Both the position numbers and the translations under genes were made by a program. Source: Candidatus Caldarchaeum sp. (lineage in GTDB: Archaea; Thermoproteota; Nitrososphaeria_A; Caldarchaeales; Caldarchaeaceae). Taken from it: a stretch of DNA of 64,000 nt. Positions 5,878 through 40,973 of the stretch are shown here, one piece after another. The first letter of the stretch is position 1. Each line of letters opens with the position of its first letter. The notes under the pieces are model-generated. The model worked only from the letters and a program-made list of their open reading frames with translations. It did not search any database and was not told the origin of the DNA. The stretch spans positions 175,656 through 239,655 of the forward strand of contig JAVYLK010000001.1 of NCBI GenBank assembly GCA_038740895.1, written 5' to 3'.

Positions 5878-5914
5878 ACGTCTTTGGGACTGGGTTCGTC
5901 CTAAATTAACACTT

Positions 5915-7081
5915 CTACGAAAGGTTTAATACAAGCCTCTCAACGGCTTCAGCTGCACGCCTAGCTCCGCCCAACTCCCGCACCCTACTCTGGTGTGTTT
6001 TGGCGGCATGGTCCATGCGGCTGTTTTCGAGAACATCGGAGACAACAGCCTCGAACTCCGAAGCGTCCAGCATGTCTTGGTCATAAACCTCAGCCAACCC
6101 AAGCTCCTTAGCCTTCAAAGCGTTAGCATTCTGCTCTCCGTGCTGAGGCGTGGGGATCAGCAGCATCTTCTTACCGTACGCCATGCATTTAGTTATCAGC
6201 GTTAGGCCGCCCCTCCCAACAACCAAGTCTGCGGCCATAATCATGCTGTCTAGGTCTTCAACCCAGCTAGATACGTAAAAAGACCCTACCCTGAAAGACT
6301 CGCCGCCACCGGGGTTAGCTGTTGAGAGGACGTAGCTGAACCTGCTGCTCAGCCTGGGGGCGATCTCTAAGAACTTTTCGACAAGCCTTCTCTTCTCCTC
6401 CAACCCGCCGCTTACGGTTATCAGTACAAGAGGCTTATCAGAGCCGCCGTACGTCCTCCTCAAACTCATCATCTCCTGTTGTGAAACGGCCGGCGGGTCG
6501 ACCAACGGGCCCACGTACAAGACTCTGTTAACGACTTTTCGCGGGAAGTCGAGAGTGGCTTCGGAAATTGTGCTTGGCGGCGGCAGGTCGGGCACGATTA
6601 TTACGTCCGACAAGTCCCAGATGAGCTGAGCCGCCTGGAGGGCTGGCTCGGCAAGCTTCGCAGCCCTTCTGTGCCTTCGAGTCTCTAGCAGGAGGTTGTA
6701 CTGGTTTAGTATTGTGGCTACAGGCTTGTTCATCAGCTTGGCGGCCGCTACGGCTGAGGCTCTCGTGTCTGAGACTACGCAATCTGTCCCTGTCTCGGAG
6801 ATGTTTACCGCTTCTGCGCCGACCTGTGATAGGAAGCGGGCTGGGAGCGTGATGTTTTCCTTAATCGTCTTCTTTACGCTCACTACTCCGTCATCCCCAA
6901 CTCCATACTTGACTGCGGGAACTCTTGAAGGGCTGAACCCCGTCCGCTCCAAGTAGGGGACGGCCTGTCCGTAAGCCGAGAACGAAACTCCATGACCCCT
7001 TCTCATCAACTCCCTCGCCACGACTAAGCTCCTGGAAGCATGCCCTAGCCCGATTCCGCACACAGCTACATGGATAAACAT
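5915..7081 (-). CDS. glycosyltransferase (MurG/MGDG-synthase-like GT28/GT1 fold)
   Basis: C-terminal GT-B motif GGLTLITKCMAYGKKMLLIPTPQHGEQNANALKAKELGLA. 388 aa. Confidence 0.65.
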   Translation of the reverse strand: MFIHVAVCGIGLGHASRSLVVARELMRRGHGVSFSAYGQAVPYLERTGFSPSRVPAVKYGVGDDGVVSVKKTIKENITLPARFLSQVGAEAVNISETGTDCVVSDTRASAVAAAKLMNKPVATILNQYNLLLETRRHRRAAKLAEPALQAAQLIWDLSDVIIVPDLPPPSTISEATLDFPRKVVNRVLYVGPLVDPPAVSQQEMMSLRRTYGGSDKPLVLITVSGGLEEKRRLVEKFLEIAPRLSSRFSYVLSTANPGGGESFRVGSFYVSSWVEDLDSMIMAADLVVGRGGLTLITKCMAYGKKMLLIPTPQHGEQNANALKAKELGLAEVYDQDMLDASEFEAVVSDVLENSRMDHAAKTHQSRVRELGGARRAAEAVERLVLNLS

Positions 7082-26082: not shown

Positions 26083-27057
26083 GTGGTCCTCGACCCTTTC
26101 GCCGGCGTTGGCACTACGCCTCTTACCTGCCGTGAGACGGGGGTTCCGTCGATAGGAGTCGAGGTCTCACCCCTATTCCAGTTCATAGCAGACGTGAAGC
26201 TTCAAGACTACGACGTCAACGTCCTCAGGCGTCTCAGGGACGAGGTCATGTCGGTTAAATTCGTAAAACCGGAGTATAGGGCAAGCCCGTTCATACGTAA
26301 GCTCTACCCCAGGCCCGTTCTAGAGGACGTCTTCTTCTTCAAGAAAATATTAGAAGACATGCCGAACGACAAGTACAGGCGGTTCATAACACTGGCTCTC
26401 GTCATAGCCGCTGAGAAATCCTCCTACATTTACCGAGATGGCAGCGTAGTAAAGGCCGTGAAGAATAAGCCGAGAATACCCTCTCTGCGAAAAGCACTCC
26501 GACGTGTGTTGAGCATGATGATAAAGGACGTTGAAACATCCTCGCTGGAAAACGTCGAGTCAAATGTTGTCCTTGGGGACGCGCGACGCCTAGACTTTAT
26601 ACAGGACGAGTCCATCGACATAGTGATTACATCTCCTCCCTACTTGAACAAGATCGAGTACACGCAGTGCTACTGGCCTGAGTACGAGCTCTTCTTTCCC
26701 AACGAACCGCATTCCTCTCTCAGGTCTTACATAGGCGTCAGGCCGGACAGCATGGAGTTTTCCAGCTATTCAGGTGAGGTTCCCCCAGCAGCTCATCTCT
26801 ACTTCGAGGACATTGGCATGGCTTTAAGAGAGCTTCACCGTGTCCTCAAGCACGGGGGAAGAGCCGTCGTAGTGGTTGGTGGTGGAGTTTTCCCCCACAA
26901 GGTGATTGAGACCGACGTCGAGCTGGCCGCCCTAGCTGAAGAGAAAGGTTTCAGAGTCGACAGGATCGTGGCTGTGAACAAAAGAGCTGCGACCACGAGG
27001 AGGGTTGTCAAAATAGGTGAGACTAGAGAAAGCATTATCTACCTTAGCAAACTTTAA
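26083..27057 (+). CDS. N4-cytosine/N6-adenine-type methyltransferase (PF01555-like; motif I DPFAGVGTT, motif IV SPPY). N-terminus apparently split by a frameshift; the putative upstream segment is 25926..26018.
   Basis: VLDPFAGVGTT (SAM binding) near the current N-terminus, then ITSPPYLNKIEY. The in-frame region upstream of the GTG start has no start codon back to a TGA at 25966. A short ORF starting ATG 25926 in the +0 frame, right after the pfpI stop, ends at TAA 26016-18 inside a T6 tract (26007-26012). Confidence 0.6.
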   Translation: MVLDPFAGVGTTPLTCRETGVPSIGVEVSPLFQFIADVKLQDYDVNVLRRLRDEVMSVKFVKPEYRASPFIRKLYPRPVLEDVFFFKKILEDMPNDKYRRFITLALVIAAEKSSYIYRDGSVVKAVKNKPRIPSLRKALRRVLSMMIKDVETSSLENVESNVVLGDARRLDFIQDESIDIVITSPPYLNKIEYTQCYWPEYELFFPNEPHSSLRSYIGVRPDSMEFSSYSGEVPPAAHLYFEDIGMALRELHRVLKHGGRAVVVVGGGVFPHKVIETDVELAALAEEKGFRVDRIVAVNKRAATTRRVVKIGETRESIIYLSKL

Positions 27058-32393: not shown

Positions 32394-33020
32394 TTGATGG
32401 TTCCGGCGATCGTTAGGCTAGACATTATTTTCGAAGCCGTCAGCTTCATCTTCAGCCTAGCCATATCCTCCGTCGCCCTCCTTGCTTGGAGGAAGTTAAG
32501 GTCTAGAACCCTGCTGCTGTTCGCCTTGGGCTTTTTCCTAATGGCTGCCGCCATGCTTCTGCGTGTAGTTTTGGTAAGCTTAGCTTTCTCGTCCGCTTCC
32601 TCCCCCCCATACTTCAGGCACCTGTTTTTCCTAACTCTCCAGCTTCAGGAGACAATCTACTCACTCATACGGCTGGTGTCGTACATCGTTTTTCTGTACC
32701 TGTACGCCGCCTACCCTTTGAAGAAGGACGGAGGCCTTTACCTTCTCACCCCCGCATCCCTAATCTACAACCCGTTCTTCGAAGCGGTGTCTGCAACGAT
32801 ACTCGCTTTCATAGTTTATCAGCTGGTCACAACAACACGGGACAAACAAGCCGGCTACGGAACAGCAGGCTTCATATTCCTACTGATCAGCCACCTACTC
32901 TTCATAGCAACGCCCCTGTCTCTAAACTTCTACCTTCTAGCCCACTTCACCCAGATGCTGTCATTCGTTCTCTTCCTGACAGGGGTTTCGACGGTGCTCA
33001 AACATGGTGAAAGACTATAG
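32394..33020 (+). CDS. integral membrane hypothetical protein (about 6 TM)
   Basis: Uniformly hydrophobic 208-aa ORF. Confidence 0.4.
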   Translation: MMVPAIVRLDIIFEAVSFIFSLAISSVALLAWRKLRSRTLLLFALGFFLMAAAMLLRVVLVSLAFSSASSPPYFRHLFFLTLQLQETIYSLIRLVSYIVFLYLYAAYPLKKDGGLYLLTPASLIYNPFFEAVSATILAFIVYQLVTTTRDKQAGYGTAGFIFLLISHLLFIATPLSLNFYLLAHFTQMLSFVLFLTGVSTVLKHGERL

Positions 33021-33279
33021 GTCGAAGGCTAGAATATACTCGGACATACTCGAGTCCGTGTCTTCGCAGGGCTTGGCTAAGCCCACGAAGATTATGGTGG
33101 ACGCCAACCTCTCATACGACCGTTTGACCAAATACCTCTCGCTGCTGCTGGAGAAAGGCTTGGTAAAAAAGTATGAAGGGTCTGAGCTTTCGTACGTGAT
33201 TACAGAGAAAGGCGTGCAGTATCTCTCCGAGTTTAAAAAATTCGAAAAGCTGGCAGCTGCTTTCGGCCTCAGGCTATGA
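33004..33279 (+). CDS. small winged-helix DNA-binding protein (HTH_45-like)
   Basis: ARIYSDILESVSSQGLAKPTKIMVDANLSYDRLTKYLSLLLEKGLVKK, a typical crenarchaeal small wHTH regulator. Confidence 0.55.
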   Translation: MVKDYRSKARIYSDILESVSSQGLAKPTKIMVDANLSYDRLTKYLSLLLEKGLVKKYEGSELSYVITEKGVQYLSEFKKFEKLAAAFGLRL

Positions 33280-33492
33280 TGTTGAGGCATGCTGCGTCTT
33301 CTTCTTGACGATCCGGATTTTGCAGAGCAGCGAGTCGCCGTCCTTGATCTCGAAGATTTTCCTTATCTCTTCAGGGATAGTTATCCGACCGCCCGCAGTG
33401 ACTTCTGCGAAGAACGGAATATCTTCCTCAGATATTTCAACCATTTTTACGGCTTTTACAGGTTCAAGCTGCTTAATAACCTCACTCGGCAC
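33274..33492 (-). CDS. AbrB/MazE/SpoVT-type swapped-hairpin DNA-binding protein (72 aa)
   Basis: GRITIPEEIRKIFEIKDGDSL motif. Overlaps the upstream decarboxylase gene by 11 nt (co-transcribed). Confidence 0.55.
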   Translation of the reverse strand: MPSEVIKQLEPVKAVKMVEISEEDIPFFAEVTAGGRITIPEEIRKIFEIKDGDSLLCKIRIVKKKTQHASTS

Positions 33493-34456: not shown

Positions 34457-35605
34457 CTAAGTGTAGCGTATTCTTTGAAACCGTCTGACTAACTCAACAA
34501 CCTCAGCCGAGACATTCTCCCCCTCCAAGGCTCTCTTACAAAGCCGGGCTGCCCTCGACATCTGCTTCAAACCCATACCCCTTCTGGAAACCTCGGAAGT
34601 CCCCATCCTCACAGCTATATCCACAAGTATCTTAGACTTCTCCAGAACATCCCTCATCCTCACTCCATCCTGCTCGGTGCAAGGTATGTAAACTTGGTGT
34701 GATTTTGTGTATCCACTCGAGTCCTTGAAAGGCCTGACCCCATACTTATCGAGAGACGAAGCCAGCTCTGACGCGTTGCTCACCACTCTTTCTGCGTAGG
34801 CCCGACCGTTGCGTTTCATCTCTTCTAAGGCTACGGCCAGCCCTGCAACCCTGTTGAAGTGAATGTTATCTACAAACTTGTGGAAAGTCGTTTCCTCCAC
34901 CGCTCTGGCGATTTTTTCGTCATTGGTGAGTATAATTCCTCCTTGGGGGCCGAAGAATGATTTGTGAGTCGACCCGAGCAGGATGTCAGCTCCTTCTTCG
35001 AGAGGTTTCTGGAACAAACCGCCCGCTATCAGCCCTAGAACGTGAGAGCCGTCGTAAACAACCCTGCCTCCGTATGAGTGGACAGCCTCCGACAACTCTT
35101 TCACCGGCATCGGGTAAAGAAATAAACTCGCCCCCAACACCACGGCATCCGGCCTCTCCCTCTCAACAATTCTGAGACACTCTTCCAAGTCTAGGTGAAA
35201 CCCTTTGTACGGGAGAAAATGAACACGGTAGCCGAAAACTTCAACAATCTTATCCTTCATCAAGCCGGGGTATCCGCCAACCGAGGGGTCGACCGACGCG
35301 ACCTTACCTCCCCTACCTGCGACAACGTACAAAGCCTGCATCAAGGCCAGATGACCGGAGAGAGGAGCTACGCTGACGAAGTCGCAGCGGAATACACTCT
35401 TAGCCAAGTCCTCGGCAGCGCTCCAGACTTCATGCATCATCGACGTGCCTGAGTAGAATTCTGGCCTGAACGCATAGCGGGAGGCCATGTCTGACGAGAG
35501 AGCTCTTCTGACGGCCGGGCTGAGGACGTTGTCGCTTGCCAACAGGCTGAGATACCTTGGCCTTTCACGGTCATGCCTGTAAACAGCTTCAAGAGGCCTG
35601 TACAT
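34457..35605 (-). CDS. glyA: serine hydroxymethyltransferase-like PLP enzyme (SHMT family)
   Basis: LLASDNVLSPAVRRAL (cf. LIASENF), PLP-Lys region GSTHKSFFGPQGGIIL. At 382 aa it is shorter than canonical SHMT, so it may be a SHMT-like paralog. Confidence 0.55.
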   Translation of the reverse strand: MYRPLEAVYRHDRERPRYLSLLASDNVLSPAVRRALSSDMASRYAFRPEFYSGTSMMHEVWSAAEDLAKSVFRCDFVSVAPLSGHLALMQALYVVAGRGGKVASVDPSVGGYPGLMKDKIVEVFGYRVHFLPYKGFHLDLEECLRIVERERPDAVVLGASLFLYPMPVKELSEAVHSYGGRVVYDGSHVLGLIAGGLFQKPLEEGADILLGSTHKSFFGPQGGIILTNDEKIARAVEETTFHKFVDNIHFNRVAGLAVALEEMKRNGRAYAERVVSNASELASSLDKYGVRPFKDSSGYTKSHQVYIPCTEQDGVRMRDVLEKSKILVDIAVRMGTSEVSRRGMGLKQMSRAARLCKRALEGENVSAEVVELVRRFQRIRYT

Positions 35606-35641: not shown

Positions 35642-36100
35642 TCACACATAGACGTACCTAGTGTCAGACTTGACAACTCTCAGCGTGACATACGTGTTCA
35701 CCGCTGAAACACCTTTGAGCTTCTTTATCCTATCAACAACCTCCCTGACGTGGTTTAAATCGTAGCCGACGACGACTGCGATCGCGTCATAGTCTCCTGA
35801 AAGCTGGTAGATGTTATAAACCTCCCTCATGGCTTTCAGCTCCTCAAGAACATTATCCAGCTCGGAAGGCTCGATCTTAATCATCAAAGCAGCTGAATTC
35901 TTCAGCCCAAGCTTAGAATGGTCCACAAGGGCAGTGATACGGCGGATTACACCGCTGCGGACTAGCCTGTTAAACCTGAAACGAACCGTGTTTTCGCTGA
36001 CTCCCAGCTTCCTCCCTATGTCGGCAAAAGAGGCTCGTCCATCCTCGTAGAGGATAGACAATATCTTCTTGTCGAGCTCGTCAACCTCCTCAGCCATCAC
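35642..36100 (-). CDS. Lrp/AsnC family transcriptional regulator
   Basis: LDKKILSILYEDGRASFADIGRKLGVSENTVRFRFNRLVRSGVIRRI plus a C-terminal RAM domain. 152 aa. Confidence 0.85.
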   Translation of the reverse strand: MMAEEVDELDKKILSILYEDGRASFADIGRKLGVSENTVRFRFNRLVRSGVIRRITALVDHSKLGLKNSAALMIKIEPSELDNVLEELKAMREVYNIYQLSGDYDAIAVVVGYDLNHVREVVDRIKKLKGVSAVNTYVTLRVVKSDTRYVYV

Positions 36101-36536
36101 CGTCCCACCTAACTATCAACCCTTTGTCCGGGCTGTGTTTTGAGAGGTCGACAAACCTCCAACCCCTTCCGACAAACCTTATAGCGGCGACGGGCCTTGG
36201 GTGTATCCTCTCGCCGCAGTGAGGGCATTTTACTTCAAACTTCTTTACAAACTCCATCAGCCTAGAGACCTGCTCGCTGTTCAGCATGGCGTATGATTTG
36301 CTGCTGCTTTTCACCTCGACAGCTATCAACTCCCCCCCGTCAACGGCCAGCATGTCGGGCTTAGCCATCTTACCCGAGCCGCTTCCCGGAGTCCTTATGG
36401 CGTAGAAACCATCCTCCCCGACCTCAACGAACTTTCTCAGCAGGCTGTACTCACCTTCGTAGCCCAACCGCGCCCTATACCTTGGGGAGTTGGGGTTGGA
36501 GGGTTTTCGAGCCATACATTCAACGCCCGTCTTCAA
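36090..36536 (-). CDS. Holliday-junction-resolvase (Hjc/Hje)-family PD-(D/E)xK nuclease with an inserted CxxC...H element
   Basis: Hjc-like pattern G.EGEYSLLRKFVEVGEDGFYAIRTPGSGSG...PDMLAVDGGELIAVEVKSS...YAMLNSEQVSRLMEF, plus KCPHCGERIHP. Overlaps the lrp start by 11 nt. Confidence 0.55.
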   Translation of the reverse strand: MKTGVECMARKPSNPNSPRYRARLGYEGEYSLLRKFVEVGEDGFYAIRTPGSGSGKMAKPDMLAVDGGELIAVEVKSSSKSYAMLNSEQVSRLMEFVKKFEVKCPHCGERIHPRPVAAIRFVGRGWRFVDLSKHSPDKGLIVRWDGDG

Positions 36537-36903
36537 GATGTATTATCTTCTTCTCCTGCTTCTCCGCGACAGGCGGGTTCTTCTCGATCTCGTTCAGCTC
36601 GATCAACAGCGGACTCAGATACCTGCTGAAAGTAGCTGAGTTCTTGACCCATTTCCTCTCCGAAGGCTTAGACAAATACCCAATCTCAACAAGGTTGGAG
36701 AGGAATGTGGAAACGCTTCTACGCTTTCTTTCATTCCTCGAAACAGATTCGTGTAAACGTTCAGTCAAGTCTGTGAGGCTGAAGGTGGTTTTACTCATCG
36801 TGGCGATTGCCGCCAGCACCTGCACGATCTCGTCCTCGGTCAAAAGCCGCGTCTTCCACTTCAGCATCTTCACCACAGGGTTCACTTCTTTCATTTTTGT
36901 CAA
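36520..36903 (-). CDS. hypothetical small winged-helix-like protein (127 aa)
   Basis: wHTH-like segment LTDLTERLHESVSRNERKRRSVSTFLSNLVEIGYLSK. Overlaps both operon neighbours. Confidence 0.4.
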   Translation of the reverse strand: MTKMKEVNPVVKMLKWKTRLLTEDEIVQVLAAIATMSKTTFSLTDLTERLHESVSRNERKRRSVSTFLSNLVEIGYLSKPSERKWVKNSATFSRYLSPLLIELNEIEKNPPVAEKQEKKIIHLEDGR

Positions 36904-38330
36904 GCCCTGTAAAACCTTTCATAAATGTATGCCGGGTCAACCATCACCATTTTACTGCATGAGAAGCATGTCGTCTGCAGCATTTCTTTATCGGATATGG
37001 CTAGCTCAAGCTCGGTTTTAGATGGGAGAACTAGAAGGTTTATCGACTGGCAGTAAGGGCATTTAAGCTTCACTCTCGTGCCGCTGTCGTCGTTGAGCAA
37101 GATGCCTTTGTTCTTCAGCTTGAAGAAGACGGGGGATTGAGGTACGGCTGGTTCGGGAGCGGGCTGCTTGACACCGCTGAGCCGGCTTAGCTCCGCCCTC
37201 AGCCTCTCGTTCTCCTCCTCCAGCTGAGACTTCTTCGCCACAACTTCCTTAAACTCCTTCTCCAGCTTTTCGAAAACCCATTTAGGAATCAAGTCGTTCT
37301 TTATAGCGGGCATTACAAACTCGACGACCTTCTTCCTGACGTTCTCCACGAGGGGCTGCTCCAGCGGCTTAAGCACTTGGATCTCGCCGGCCTTCACCTT
37401 GGCGATGTTTGCGAACTGTTTTGACAACGCCTCCAAGTCCTCTCTCTTCACCAGCTCAGGACTTTGGAGAAGCATCATGAGGGAACGGGCCGAAGCCGCC
37501 TCGTCCTCCAAAACCTCCACTATCTCCCTTCTCTTCTCAACCTCCTCCTCCAGCTTCCTCAACTCTTCCTTCTTCTCCTCTATGGCCTTCAGCACATCCT
37601 CGGCACTCCCCCGGAAACCAACGAGCGCTTCATACTCCTTGGCAAGCTCCTCAAGCTGTTTAGAAAGAACCTCCCGCCTGTCCTCCAGCTCAGCCACCGA
37701 TTGTCTAAGCCTTTTGAACAGCTGTTCAAGGTCTTCGATTTCGGGCAGCGACAGAGATAGTTGTTTCAGCCTCTCCTGCTTGGCGTTAAGCTCTTCCTCG
37801 ACCCGGCTGAGCTTTAGCTCCGTCTGCTTAAGCATGTTGTTAGCTTCCACTATCTTCGACTCGACTTCATCCAAGCGTGCGAATTTTTCAAACAACTCCT
37901 TGACATCTAGGCCTGAAGCGGTCATCTTCACCGCGGCTCTAGCTATCTGCTCGAGGTTGTTGACGTCGACGGAATACTTCTCAAGCGTTTTCATAAGGGC
38001 CCCAACCCTGTTGACGGTCTCGAGAGTTAGCTTATGCTGCTCTAGGTAAATCTTCAAGTCCTCCTCAATTCTTCTCCTCTTCTCCAGCAGCTCGCTGATG
38101 GCGTACTCGAGCTTGACACTCTCACGGAATTTCTTCTCATAATCCTTAACCAGAGCGGAGTAGTTTTTTCCATGGGCCCTCTCCAGCTCACGAAGCTTCA
38201 GCGCAGCCTTCACATACCTCTTGAACTGTTGGGGAGACAGCCCCAGCTCTTTATATGCGGTAAGAACCTCGCTCATCGCCCCCCCATCATCCTTACCCAC
38301 TCCACCGCCGGCCTCCAAGTTCTCGTCCAT
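36900..38330 (-). CDS. long coiled-coil protein with C-terminal Cys4 zinc ribbon (476 aa), hypothetical
   Basis: Gly-rich N-terminus, about 350 aa of heptad-rich E/K/L sequence, and C-terminal CPYCQS...CFSCS. No Walker motifs, so not an SMC/Rad50 ATPase. Confidence 0.5.
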   Translation of the reverse strand: MDENLEAGGGVGKDDGGAMSEVLTAYKELGLSPQQFKRYVKAALKLRELERAHGKNYSALVKDYEKKFRESVKLEYAISELLEKRRRIEEDLKIYLEQHKLTLETVNRVGALMKTLEKYSVDVNNLEQIARAAVKMTASGLDVKELFEKFARLDEVESKIVEANNMLKQTELKLSRVEEELNAKQERLKQLSLSLPEIEDLEQLFKRLRQSVAELEDRREVLSKQLEELAKEYEALVGFRGSAEDVLKAIEEKKEELRKLEEEVEKRREIVEVLEDEAASARSLMMLLQSPELVKREDLEALSKQFANIAKVKAGEIQVLKPLEQPLVENVRKKVVEFVMPAIKNDLIPKWVFEKLEKEFKEVVAKKSQLEEENERLRAELSRLSGVKQPAPEPAVPQSPVFFKLKNKGILLNDDSGTRVKLKCPYCQSINLLVLPSKTELELAISDKEMLQTTCFSCSKMVMVDPAYIYERFYRA

Positions 38331-38483
38331 TAACTTCTTAATACAACAAACAATGATTTAAGAGTATAAGTTTACCCAGACCAATCGGCGTCCAGACGTA
38401 TTAGCCTCAATGGTCTTCGAGTAATACGTGAGTAGTGAAGTCTTAAATAAATACGGGGCATAACCATATGTAGTGCAGTAGTT

Positions 38484-39290: not shown

Positions 39291-40555
39291 ATTTACTTGC
39301 TTTAATAATCCTCGTCGGGGTTTTCCAGACAGCGGCTGCCCAGCCCTCGGCAGTATTGTGGGTCGAGGTCAACGGATACATCTCGCCCGGCACGGCAGCT
39401 TACGTCGAGGAGGCTTTCGCCGAAGCCTCTAGGTATTCTGCGGTTCTGGTCACGCTTGACACTCTTGGCGGGCAGGCTGACGCGATGCTCAGGATAGTAG
39501 AATCGATACAGCGTTCTCCTGTTCCGGTGATAGGGTTTGTTTACCCGGTTGGAGGAAAAGCCATGTCGGCAGGCACCTACATCCTGATGGCTTCGAACTT
39601 CGCCGCCATGTCTCCGGGTACGCTGATAGGCTCAGCCCAGCCGGTTGCAGGGGGAGAGCCTGTGACCGATTCGAAGGTGCTGAACTTCTTCGCCGAGAAG
39701 ATGGGCTCTCTCGCCGAGGCCAACGGACGGAACAGGGAGGAGGCTGTGAAGATAGTGCTGGAGAACAAAAACTTCAACCCCCAGTCTGCGATGGAGGCTG
39801 GGTTGATCGAGGCTGTCGCCAACAGCGTGGACGAGCTTTTAGAGCAGGCTGACGGAAAGACGGTCATGACGTTCTGGGGTGAGAGAGTTTTGAACGTGAA
39901 AGGCGCAAGCGTAGTCAGGAAAAGCCCAAGCTTGACCGCTACGATAGTCTCGATGCTGTCGGACCCGCTTTTGTCGAGCGTCCTGATAACTCTTGGAATC
40001 CTGCTTGTGGTGTTCGGCTTGTCCAGCCCCGGATGGGGAGGCGAGGTGATGGGCATTCTGCTCGTTATTTTGGGTTTGGTGGGCCAGGGGCTGAACATAA
40101 ACATAGCGGGGGCGTTGCTGGTCATTGTCGGGGCTGTTCTGATGCTCTATGAGCTGCTGTCGCCCGGGTTCGGGATAGTTGGAATTGGCGGAATACTGTG
40201 CTTGACTCTAGGCATGATACTCATAGGAGGCTACCCGCCAACACCCGCGTTCGTTGCACAGGAGTGGTTCACTCAGTTCCAGACAACGGTAATAATGCTG
40301 GCTTTGTTCATGGCTGCTTTCCTAGGCTTTCTAGGATACAAATCCTACAAAGCTCAGAGACGCAGACCCATCGAGTTATCTGCGAAGCATGCTAGAGCGG
40401 TTGAGCGGATAGAGACTGGAAGAGTTGGCTACATCGTAATAGAAGGCGAGTACTGGCGTGCGAAAGCGGTGAGGGCTGTTGAAGAGGGGCAGTCTGTTAA
40501 AATAGTTGGGCGGGAGGACGGGGTTTTTGTCGTGGAGCCAGAGGAACCTACCTGA
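39287..40555 (+). CDS. NfeD-family membrane-bound ClpP-class serine protease (stomatin operon partner)
   Basis: ClpP-like N-terminal domain (GYISPGTAAYVEEA...DTLGGQADAMLRIV...GGKAMSAGTYILMA), central TM helices, C-terminal OB-fold. ATGA-coupled to the stomatin gene. Confidence 0.75.
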   Translation: MNLLALIILVGVFQTAAAQPSAVLWVEVNGYISPGTAAYVEEAFAEASRYSAVLVTLDTLGGQADAMLRIVESIQRSPVPVIGFVYPVGGKAMSAGTYILMASNFAAMSPGTLIGSAQPVAGGEPVTDSKVLNFFAEKMGSLAEANGRNREEAVKIVLENKNFNPQSAMEAGLIEAVANSVDELLEQADGKTVMTFWGERVLNVKGASVVRKSPSLTATIVSMLSDPLLSSVLITLGILLVVFGLSSPGWGGEVMGILLVILGLVGQGLNINIAGALLVIVGAVLMLYELLSPGFGIVGIGGILCLTLGMILIGGYPPTPAFVAQEWFTQFQTTVIMLALFMAAFLGFLGYKSYKAQRRRPIELSAKHARAVERIETGRVGYIVIEGEYWRAKAVRAVEEGQSVKIVGREDGVFVVEPEEPT

Positions 40556-40973
40556 AAGGCCGGCGCCTCTGGAAACCTCTAGACCTGAAACCTCCTCTCT
40601 CCCTTCGCTCCTCGGAGAAGCTCTCTTTCTGCGACAGGTTGTTCTCTGTGTTTACCTCTTCTATCTGGACGTCAGCTGGCTCGATCTTCCCGAACCTTCC
40701 AAGGTTTAGCTGCATGCGGCCTTTGAACAGCTTGATGAAACCGTTAGTGACCTTTACTGCGTCGCCTTCGTTCACCGTGTCTATGTTCTCATCCCACAGC
40801 ACCAGCGTTATGGCTCCGGTTTCGTCAGCTATCAGCGCCTCGGTAAGCCTGTGCTCCGACTGGTCGTACTGCGATGACACAACCCTTGGCTCCGGCTTTT
40901 CGACGAGTTTGGCAACGAGGTTCACACCCCTCGAGCGAGGGGTTAGGCTTCCAATCTTAACGAGTTCGCTCAA
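40548..40973 (-). CDS. ssb: single-stranded DNA-binding protein (crenarchaeal SSB, single OB fold + RGG/acidic tail)
   Basis: IADETGAITLVLWDE...GDAVKVTNGFIKLFKGRMQLNLGRFGKIE matches Sulfolobus SSB (IVGDETGRVKLTLWG...ENGFVRLFKG). C-terminal RGGFRSRGFQRRRPFR tail. Confidence 0.75.
   Translation of the reverse strand: MSELVKIGSLTPRSRGVNLVAKLVEKPEPRVVSSQYDQSEHRLTEALIADETGAITLVLWDENIDTVNEGDAVKVTNGFIKLFKGRMQLNLGRFGKIEPADVQIEEVNTENNLSQKESFSEERRERGGFRSRGFQRRRPFR

Follow-up and report, generated by a model that had tools for sequence, protein, structure and literature searches.

A clade-specific coiled-coil/zinc-ribbon protein and a small winged-helix protein encoded beside the Holliday-junction resolvase gene hjc of Candidatus Caldarchaeum

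Organization of the locus

The genes described here lie in a stretch of 64,000 nucleotides from Candidatus Caldarchaeum sp. (Aigarchaeota), a stretch called the window (64 kb) below. Four genes follow each other on the minus strand, accompanied by two AT-rich elements. The four ORFs had already been recognized in the earlier note, and all of them are present on this strand and at the positions it gave; here the starts are set according to homologs.

36900..38330, minus strand: gene of a 476-aa coiled-coil/Cys4 zinc-ribbon protein (hereafter CC) without ATPase motif, from the ORF listing
36520..36894, minus strand: small winged-helix gene, 124 aa when read from the ATG that homologs support (127 aa with the TTG at 36903)
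36090..36515, minus strand: hjc, Holliday-junction resolvase, 141 aa with the start at the ATG shared by homologs
35642..36097, minus strand: regulator of the Lrp/AsnC family with Pfam HTH_AsnC-type and AsnC_trans_reg domains
38356..38370, minus strand: putative AT-rich TATA-like element cttatactcttaaat, read from the sequence, 26-40 nt upstream of the CC ATG
about 38443-38454: second putative TATA-like element, facing the divergent Band7 gene

Judged from the usual archaeal promoter geometry, both AT-rich elements are candidate promoters. The earlier note had described all junctions between the four genes as overlapping. This applies only to the end of hjc, which overlaps the start of the Lrp gene (ATG at 36097) by 8 nt; the two other overlaps arose because the longest-ORF TTG/GTG starts were taken. 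In the alignments the homologs begin at internal ATGs (MKEVNP... and MARKPS...), and with these starts a gap of 5 nt separates the CC stop from the ATG of the small gene (36894) and one of 4 nt separates the stop of the small gene from the Hjc ATG (36515). Even with the revised starts the genes are as tightly packed as in an operon. Past the Lrp gene the co-directional string runs on with genes for SHMT-like and mevalonate-decarboxylase-like proteins and with a 72-aa MazE/AbrB-like ORF. A search of the window for RNA genes and repeats found nothing but tRNA-Glu.

Identity of the nuclease

[quoted passage not shown] The NCBIfam equivalog model NF040854 gives 64.6 bits against a cut-off of 70, the match being interrupted because of an insert of 11 residues. 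Four residues (E22, D54, E67 and K69, counted in the 141-aa protein) do not vary among 19 sequences, one of which is Hjc from P. furiosus, where the catalytic Glu, Asp and Glu-x-Lys of the PD-(D/E)xK type are E9, D33, E46 and K48. The Hjc core that the earlier note had seen in this protein is thereby borne out by both profile and catalytic columns. A profile search found exactly one Hjc copy in the window and in each of the first 29 related loci (30/30), and the orthologs form a single series with one match per MAG locus-tag prefix. As an Hjc, the enzyme would act as a homodimer that cuts four-way junctions symmetrically.

In fold family, size (141 aa) and E...D...ExK pattern the protein agrees with the known archaeal resolvases (PF01870; NF040854; structures 1GEF, 1HH1 and 2WCW; paralog Hje, 1OB8). 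Compared with these, the Hjc of the Caldarchaeum clade is extended at its N-terminus by a conserved basic stretch (PRKPxxPxSPRYKAR), has a larger loop (GSGSGKMAKPD) and carries the insert with a lone CPxCG half-site:

36198..36230, minus strand: Hjc insert KCPHCGERIHP, 11 residues, flanked by the helix that follows the ExK strand and by the strand that comes next

This insert occurs in all 18 aligned relatives and is absent from P. furiosus Hjc; the earlier note had called it atypical of canonical Hjc, and it is a trait of the clade. Only its CxxC pair is conserved, while the two histidines are variable. The idea that it serves for docking of the neighboring proteins and varies together with them was rejected, since the insert is also found in the Hjc of Ca. 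Calditenuis, where neither partner gene adjoins, and in that of other lineages lacking the partner genes. The most cautious reading in the earlier note, i.e., the organism's own Hjc in an unusual context, thus proves essentially right, as the catalytic residues are intact and the orthologs are named Hjc.

The coiled-coil/zinc-ribbon protein and its relatives

Homologs of CC were found in 25 cases, all of them in Caldarchaeum/Nitrososphaerota MAGs, and neither CC nor any of these 25 contains a Pfam domain. Its heptad periodicity is pronounced, with 31% of the 28-aa windows exceeding the 95th percentile of shuffled sequences versus 3% for the shuffles themselves. AlphaFold2 predicts helices from about residue 18 to 384, followed by a confident small beta/zinc-ribbon domain. 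The protein has exactly four cysteines (424, 427, 455 and 458), which are invariant in 20 homologs; a Walker A motif (G....GK[ST]) is absent, as are SMC_N or AAA domains of Pfam. The heptads, the C-terminal Cys4 ribbon and the lack of an ATPase motif were all part of the earlier description and are confirmed, whereas the Gly-rich N-terminus mentioned there, which is indeed present in the sequence, is not conserved among homologs and is predicted to be disordered. A known cytoskeletal or cell-division factor is not recognizable in CC: Pfam is empty, NCBIfam gives matches at the coiled-coil level only and the fold search yields no structural match. Three parts can be distinguished.

37881..38273, minus strand: N-module, about aa 20-150, with the motif L.ELEK..GKSY...EYEKK ... 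HKLTLETVN
37176..37538, minus strand: helical part of the C-module, about aa 265-385, with an invariant P..W.F..LE.E block (alignment A1)
36903..37133, minus strand: C-terminal Cys4 zinc ribbon, about aa 400-476, CPYC...CFSC with C424, C427, C455 and C458 invariant

The N-module is the most conserved block of the CC alignment (A1), and an exhaustive HMM search revealed that it is common to CC and an HTH-bearing coiled-coil family of other archaea. Comparison of A1 with the alignment of this family (A5) by hhalign gave a probability of 99.8 (E=6e-28), and the HTH-bearing proteins align with CC from the N-module onward. Members such as that from a Bathyarchaeia MAG (MFQ6085823.1) share the coiled coil and the N-module in the form L.LE...GKSY...E[FY]E.K ... 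K.T.E.I ... G.dp but differ from CC in having an HTH_23/HTH_7-like domain at the N-terminus and no Cys4 ribbon at the C-terminus. On one long contig the respective gene stands alone in a polysaccharide-synthesis cluster, away from hjc. Because these distant homologs have the HTH in the same chain as the N-module, the family appears to be associated with DNA.

The C-terminal half has relatives of its own. Ca. Calditenuaceae/Aigarchaeota have stand-alone proteins of about 270 aa (e.g., MCS7094843.1, GBC71391.1; alignment A6) that share the C-module, i.e., the VP.W.F..LE helix and the Cys4 ribbon, with CC (hhalign of A1 versus A6: probability 99.7, E=6e-27, residues 265-470). The ribbon, which is modeled with four strands at a pLDDT of about 85, is kept in these short homologs. 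They are devoid of the N-module and the long coiled coil, and neither a small winged-helix gene nor hjc is found close by; one of them sits in the same Band7/NfeD/SSB/LysRS context as CC.

The small winged-helix protein

The neighboring 127-aa protein is predicted to consist of a winged helix and a C-terminal helix (pLDDT 80.5). A basic KKRRS patch in front of the predicted recognition helix and an RKW wing are conserved, and the model suggests that it is a winged-helix protein that would bind DNA. Fold searches with this protein and with CC returned only generic winged-helix and helical matches. Downstream of one HTH-coiled-coil homolog (L036) a 128-aa ORF was considered as a counterpart of the small protein and discarded, hhalign detecting no similarity between the two. 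Both CC and the small protein are confined to Caldarchaeales-type archaea. In this lineage the separate winged-helix gene may supply the role of the HTH that is fused to the distant CC homologs.

Conservation of the gene neighborhood

Adjacency was counted in 107 Hjc loci, which were reduced to 42 non-redundant clusters at 90% identity. In 33 of the 42, hjc and the small gene are immediate neighbors, in three arrangements. In 16 clusters CC, the small gene and hjc follow each other co-directionally (CC>small>Hjc) and in 12 hjc is inverted (CC>small> <Hjc); in 4 the small gene is convergent to hjc and no CC gene was found, two of these having a flank too short to exclude one. The pairing in the CC-less arrangement is confirmed by the adjacent NCBI accessions MEM1575142/3. 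Wherever CC is present it immediately precedes the small gene in the same direction (28/28), and the junctions among called genes are tight, ranging from -52 to +37 nt. The three genes are thus conserved as neighbors in 28 of the 42 clusters, as the reading of them as a set had supposed, and these identities, their conservation and their adjacency are read directly from the loci. The Lrp gene, which the earlier note had placed in the same operon, does not belong to this set, since it occurs only in the co-directional loci and is absent where hjc is inverted. Its product is a clear member of its family (PF13404, 57.2 bits, cut-off 27; PF01037, 56.1 bits, cut-off 25).

The region is core, syntenic and housekeeping in character. 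Its flanks (tRNA deacylase, LysRS, SSB, NfeD, Band7, SHMT and MVD) are found in relatives down to 38% CC identity. In the lineage with inverted hjc the genes of Lrp, SHMT, MVD, Band7 and NfeD are gone from the junctions, and the SSB gene is located directly upstream of CC. In Ca. Calditenuis Hjc adjoins a short-chain dehydrogenase, and the gene for a short homolog of the CC C-module lies at another place, away from both Hjc and the small gene. As hjc is separated there from the CC-related gene, the association is therefore dispensable. Mirror-tree and partial-correlation analysis of CC, the small protein and Hjc versus five control genes in 17 non-redundant loci gave no specific co-evolution signal. 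A literature search found no paper that names CSUB_C1623-1626 or the trio of CC, small gene and hjc.

Comparison with SMC-type and defence systems

The SMC-type systems, including LmuB, JetABC, Rad50/SbcC and an archaea-specific SMC-related protein, possess an ATPase head that is absent from CC. Profiles of this type score 12-25 bits with CC (cut-offs 300-1000), and the NCBIfam Rad50 models 14-22 bits (cut-offs 700-1087). With regard to the Wadjet and kleisin proteins that partner SMCs (JetA, ScpA), CC has no profile match above cut-off. Moreover, its cysteines reside in the C-terminal ribbon, in contrast with Rad50/SbcC, where the CxxC hook is found at the apex of the coiled coil.

A further proposal, raised in the earlier note with regard to Lamassu, takes the locus as a defence or DNA-conflict module resembling Lamassu or Wadjet; CC would then be the sensor, the small protein the DNA-binding adaptor and the PD-(D/E)xK nuclease the effector. 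The architecture is superficially alike and CC does produce weak profile matches, namely to LmuB (20.5 bits in PADLOC), JetC (about 14 bits) and the N-terminus of JetA (16.8 bits, cut-off 26.2), but these are restricted to coiled-coil regions and far below the thresholds, and CC has neither ATPase head nor Walker A motif. PADLOC gives no match to either Hjc or the small protein, the nuclease is in all likelihood the orthologous housekeeping Hjc and no LmuA-type effector, and in every relative the locus, with one Hjc copy in each of those searched, keeps a fixed chromosomal position amid housekeeping genes instead of lying in a variable island. Searches of the defence and phage profile libraries (PADLOC, PHROG) gave no specific match for CC or the small protein, and viral contigs scanned with the alignments of both contained no relatives. 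The proposal cannot be upheld and a defence function is highly improbable; with considerable confidence we regard Hjc as an ordinary resolvase and the locus as something other than a defence system.

Possible roles of the CC-small pair

In Sulfolobales PINA is encoded beside hjc. The PINA ATPase and the Hjm/Hel308 helicase bind Hjc of these organisms and modulate junction processing (PMC6061704, PMC8775617), and the statement of the earlier note that canonical Hjc is normally a stand-alone gene is only partly true, since Sulfolobales Hjc works with both proteins (PMC6061704, PMC8775617). PINA and Hjm set a precedent for Hjc-binding proteins peculiar to one lineage. They are ATPases or helicases; an NTPase motif is lacking in both CC and the small protein, neither of which resembles them in sequence or fold. 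To our knowledge, the targeting and restraint of archaeal Hjc in vivo are poorly understood outside Sulfolobales and Thermococcales, and we know of nothing in this respect for Aigarchaeota.

CC and the small gene remain beside hjc across the lineage and therefore look like lineage-specific helpers of junction processing. The explanation that accounts best for the observations overall, which we put forward tentatively and at somewhat short of an even chance, is a Caldarchaeales-specific CC/winged-helix pair that cooperates, or shares its regulation, with the housekeeping Hjc. The two proteins would form one DNA-binding complex, in which the coiled coil could oligomerize or bridge while the winged helix and the zinc ribbon touch DNA or partners. 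This complex might take part in the same process as Hjc, handling branched DNA where forks stall or ahead of chromosome segregation, and might position, recruit or restrain the resolvase; minimally, its genes would be co-expressed with hjc. Complex formation, DNA binding and the link to Hjc are what we infer, and they are of unequal strength: that CC and the small protein act together is likely, whereas a functional coupling of the pair to Hjc is plausible without being probable.

The main competitor of this explanation is inherited synteny, with CC and the small protein as a lineage-specific nucleoid-associated, cytoskeletal or scaffolding pair unrelated to Hjc, whose gene would adjoin theirs by chance in a compact core region that rearranges slowly. 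The whole neighborhood is syntenic in relatives, unrelated metabolic genes (SHMT-like and mevalonate-decarboxylase-like) included, and even the rearranged lineage retains LysRS-SSB upstream and Nre/MazG downstream; the CC-related gene of Calditenuis lies apart from Hjc, the mirror-tree analysis of the 17 loci is without co-evolution signal and Hjc has its CxxC insert regardless of the neighbors. However, the trio has stayed contiguous in 12 independent clusters although five flanking genes were lost and hjc was inverted, the small gene keeps its place against hjc even without CC, and the HTH on the distant CC relatives points to DNA. We consider mere synteny less likely than not, albeit a serious contender. 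If the link to Hjc should turn out to be of this kind, a clean annotation stays, comprising an ordinary Hjc, two clade-specific proteins and no defence system. It is quite unlikely that the small protein is instead a transcription factor for hjc and/or the gene string, with CC as an unrelated or co-regulated structural protein. The small gene is never divergent in the way of the local regulators, being coupled downstream of CC or convergent to hjc, and the string already has a bona fide regulator in Lrp. Its tight coupling to CC (gap of 5 nt, order kept in 28/28) rather suggests a protein partner.

Returning to the pair as a helper of Hjc, a more specific version can be imagined, in which an ATPase-less, DNA-bridging CC-small complex is a dedicated Hjc partner that tethers the resolvase to junctions of sister chromatids or forks and so couples resolution to segregation. 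The one CPxCG half-site per protomer might then act as a zinc contact like the Rad50 hook, between Hjc dimers or with a partner. This version is unlikely; if true, it would add a novel type of accessory system for resolvases that has no relation to RuvAB, PINA/Hjm or SMC complexes. As a candidate for controlling junction resolution in a lineage-specific way, the conserved ATPase-less CC/winged-helix pair beside hjc is concrete enough to be tested. Newly defined here, and hitherto without Pfam or NCBIfam model, are two protein modules, the 'GKSY' N-module and the C-module composed of a helical part and the Cys4 ribbon.

Gene organization and genomic setting

The locus is best described as a housekeeping Holliday junction resolvase gene (hjc) with a lineage-specific two-gene unit, which encodes a coiled-coil/Cys4-ribbon protein (CC) and a small winged-helix protein. 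The four minus-strand ORFs of the earlier note are all present with exactly its boundaries.

36900-38330 (-): CC, 476 aa
36520-36903 (-): small protein, 127 aa
36090-36536 (-): Hjc, 148 aa (longest ORF)
35642-36100 (-): complete Lrp/AsnC regulator by Pfam, 152 aa
26-40 nt upstream of the CC ATG: AT-rich TATA-like element
Facing the divergent Band7 gene: second AT-rich TATA-like element

That all junctions overlap proved to be an artefact of TTG/GTG starts in the longest ORFs. Homologs of the small protein begin with M(K/R)xxNP and those of Hjc with MPRKP, which places the respective ATGs at 36894 and 36515. The junctions then read TGA, caaaa, ATG for CC/small (5-nt gap), TGA, atgt, ATG for small/Hjc (4-nt gap) and ATGGCTGA for Hjc/Lrp (8-nt overlap). 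Thus, the genes are operon-tight but mostly non-overlapping; the corresponding spacings between called genes of relatives lie between -52 and +37 nt. Both TATA-like elements, recognized from the sequence, are putative promoters. Beyond Lrp the co-directional string continues with an SHMT-like gene, a mevalonate-decarboxylase-like (MVD) gene and a 72-aa MazE/AbrB-like ORF.

The trio of CC, small gene and hjc lies in core chromosome and not in a variable island. The syntenic order comprises tRNA deacylase, methyltransferase, LysRS, SSB-like OB protein, NfeD and Band7, followed by CC, small, Hjc, Lrp, SHMT-like and MVD-like genes, and this housekeeping synteny around CC persists in relatives whose CC is as little as 38% identical. 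GC content across the window is unremarkable (51-58%) without an island-like step at the trio. Elsewhere the window encodes an aminoacyl-tRNA synthetase, pyruvate:ferredoxin oxidoreductase, fumarase and similar proteins as well as one tRNA, and a search for repeats in it found none. CC shares 99% identity with a protein encoded in a Candidatus Caldarchaeum MAG, and the 25 word-indexed CC homologs all originate from Caldarchaeum/Nitrososphaerota MAGs. The 49 homologs of the small protein belong to the same lineage and include CSUB_C1625 of Ca. Caldiarchaeum subterraneum.

The Hjc nuclease and its insert

Assignment of the nuclease to the Hjc family is confirmed by its match to Pfam PF01870 (61.8 bits, E=6e-17), by Hjc and Hje structures as its top PDB sequence matches and by catalytic Glu, Asp and Glu-x-Lys residues that do not vary when 18 relatives are aligned with Pyrococcus furiosus Hjc. 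The score against the NCBIfam Hjc equivalog (64.6 bits) lies just under the cut-off of 70. Its orthologs fall into one series, each MAG contributing one match, and several carry the NCBI name “Holliday junction resolvase Hjc”. A second Hjc, for which the earlier note proposed to look, was not detected by profile searches, which returned one copy each in the window and in the first 29 loci.

Three features set Hjc of this clade apart from the P. furiosus enzyme: the N-terminus is extended by a conserved basic stretch, the GSGSGKMAKPD loop is enlarged, and an 11-residue insert separates the helix that follows the ExK strand from the strand that comes next. This insert, noted earlier as CPHCGERIHP, is real and its C-P-x-C-G is conserved among the 18 relatives, whereas its two histidines are not. 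A metagenome scan seeded with the Hjc alignment added 80 Hjc loci, and all intact Hjc among them possess the CxxC insert. Since these include partner-less lineages, the insert characterizes the “aigarchaeal” Hjc clade and does not mark the trio. In Ca. Calditenuis an insert-bearing hjc without partner genes is followed by a short-chain dehydrogenase gene. Hjc itself is already known, and the clade with the insert represents a variant form. In the Rad50 hook two half-sites share a zinc ion; by speculative analogy, the lone CPxCG half-sites of two Hjc protomers could do the same.

On a 185-kb metagenomic contig (L116, 5977-6473) the Hjc match is broken across three reading frames without an intact ORF, possibly because of pseudogenization or misassembly; the same contig carries a short CC homolog 3.4 kb upstream. 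In one stand-alone-Hjc lineage (L089, L092, L094, L096, L097; Hjc ORFs at about 5880-6770) the stop-to-stop frame extends ~100 residues past the Hjc domain. This Arg/Gly/Glu-rich low-complexity extension overlaps the next gene and could be a real tail or a high-GC artefact.

Co-occurrence of the trio

Phyletic co-occurrence of the trio, proposed as a check in the earlier note, takes the following form: of 42 clusters, 33 have the small gene abutting hjc, with three different arrangements among them, and wherever CC is found (28/28 clusters) it is immediately upstream of, and co-directional with, the small gene.

Table. Gene arrangements in 107 Hjc-containing loci (42 clusters at 90% Hjc identity).
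Type A: CC>small>Hjc, co-directional; 16 clusters; Caldarchaeum, Pelearchaeum, HR01
Type B: CC>small> <Hjc, hjc inverted; 12 clusters; Nitrososphaeria MAGs, “Thaumarchaeota” AUK100
Type C: Alba, Hjc> <small, unrelated genes, no CC found (flanks of at least 5 kb in two clusters; two short flanks could still conceal CC); 4 clusters
Type D: Hjc alone; 9 clusters; Calditenuis and others
Untyped: small>Hjc, co-directional, contig too short to decide on CC; 1 cluster

Type B junctions are devoid of Lrp, SHMT, MVD, Band7 and NfeD, with SSB directly upstream of CC. The small-Hjc pair of type C is confirmed by adjacent NCBI accessions. In this latter lineage an Alba chromatin-protein gene, identified by eye, is found on the other side of hjc (L053, 5582-5881 (-); L088, 4646-5086 (+)), and a TnpB/OrfB-like ORF, assigned from sequence only, lies close by (L053, 8496-9260).

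The coiled-coil protein and its relatives

No Pfam family was found for CC, and its matches to the NCBIfam SMC, Rad50 and ASRP models are coiled-coil matches of 14-25 bits against cut-offs of 300-1000. Heptad repeats and a lack of ATPase motifs had been recognized correctly: the periodicity far exceeds that of shuffled controls, and no Walker A motif was found in the sequence. CC contains exactly four cysteines (424, 427, 455, 458).

An exhaustive profile search over 1.84 billion representatives yielded ~10 representatives of full length plus partial relatives in two informative groups. Short C-module proteins (230-280 aa) from Ca. Calditenuaceae/Aigarchaeota align to CC residues ~265-470 (hhalign probability 99.7, E=6e-27) and share a helical block with invariant P..W.F..LE.E and the Cys4 ribbon. 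One of their genes is found in LysRS-SSB-NfeD-Band7 context, the others elsewhere with neither hjc nor small gene nearby; the former, located in the context of full-length CC, suggests domain loss or gain in one orthologous slot. HTH-coiled-coil proteins (310-610 aa, one from Bathyarchaeia) align from CC residue ~20 onward (probability 99.8, E=6e-28) and share the motif series V.AA..L..LE...GKSY...EFE.K, K.T.E.I and G.dp. They have an N-terminal HTH_23/HTH_7-like domain and no ribbon, and on the sole long contig the gene stands alone within a cluster for polysaccharide synthesis and neighbours HEPN/MNT pairs. Judged from these alignments, CC is a mosaic of N-module, coiled coil and C-module, none of which has a curated family.

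The stand-alone short proteins of ~270 aa (P0109-P0111, P0125, P0136, P0212; loci L030-L034 and L116, 1678-2535) combine a short N-terminal helical unit with the CC C-module and ribbon. The HTH-coiled-coil family (including P0108 and P0113-P0119; loci L035-L038) is archaeal and uncharacterised; besides a long coiled coil it has the “GKSY” N-module of CC, and neither Pfam nor NCBIfam offers a model for it.

The small winged-helix protein

An AlphaFold2 model (28-sequence alignment, pLDDT 80.5) predicts a canonical winged helix (H1-S1-H2-H3-wing) flanked by an N-terminal helix and an amphipathic C-terminal helix. Fold matches comprise DpnI (9.1), Stn1 (8.6), Fur/PerR and Cullin/APC2 WHB (both about 8), histone H1 (7.6), kleisin C-terminal winged helices (6.6-7.5) and JetB (6.7-7.1); a solved relative was not detectable by sequence. 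Given this list, the sub-threshold JetA profile match (16.8 bits, cut-off 26.2) is no evidence for a kleisin.

Functional interpretation

The Lamassu-like defence module considered in the earlier note fails every test available and is very unlikely: the ATPase is absent, the core-genome position is fixed and the nuclease is the orthologous Hjc. PADLOC and PHROG profile scans gave no specific match to a defence system, and no relatives were found in viral contigs. The fallback of the earlier note, the organism's own Hjc in an unusual setting, largely holds.

Most likely, CC and the small protein form a DNA-binding coiled-coil complex; distant relatives of CC bear a DNA-binding domain on the same chain. 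Such a complex might recruit, position or restrain Hjc at branched DNA. Sulfolobales offer a precedent for Hjc partners confined to one lineage: PINA, an ATPase, and Hjm, a helicase, both bind Hjc and influence its cleavage (PMC6061704, PMC8775617). Both are unrelated to CC and the small protein. Functional coupling of the two-gene unit to Hjc is a tentative, quite possible reading. The complex could also merely sit beside Hjc by synteny, which we regard as only slightly less likely. A mirror-tree test that included five control genes detected no co-evolution specific to the trio. The trio stayed contiguous where local rearrangements deleted or inverted neighbours, so adjacency exceeds blanket synteny. 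As the wider region is still partly syntenic in relatives, this contiguity is a suggestive argument but falls short of proof.

The CC and small-protein families are uncharacterised and without curated models, and a literature search found no paper mentioning them. The finding is not categorically new, and the functional link between the two-gene unit and Hjc is a proposal; for research on recombination in archaea it provides a useful lead.

Neighbouring genes

40548-40973 (-): Sulfolobus-type single-OB SSB with RGG-rich tail, two genes upstream of CC
34457-35605 (-): short “SHMT” gene (382 aa), moderate SHMT profile match (103 bits)
33274-33492 (-): 72-aa ORF, weak MazE/AbrB-like SpoVT match (E=3e-4)
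33004-33279 (+): 91-aa HTH_45 winged-helix protein
26083-27057 (+): 324-aa ORF

NfeD/Band7 separate SSB from CC in the window. With SSB directly upstream of CC (L027, 7313-7717 (+)), the inverted-hjc lineage has SSB, CC, small and Hjc as one contiguous DNA-related block. The “SHMT” may be a divergent SHMT-like PLP enzyme rather than canonical GlyA, judging from its profile match. The 72-aa ORF terminates the co-directional string and is faced by the 91-aa gene; some relatives keep this pair in the same position (loci L004/L005, with genes of 56 aa and 91 aa). Only the C-terminal half of the 324-aa ORF matches an N6_N4 DNA methylase profile, and only the first half of that profile is covered.
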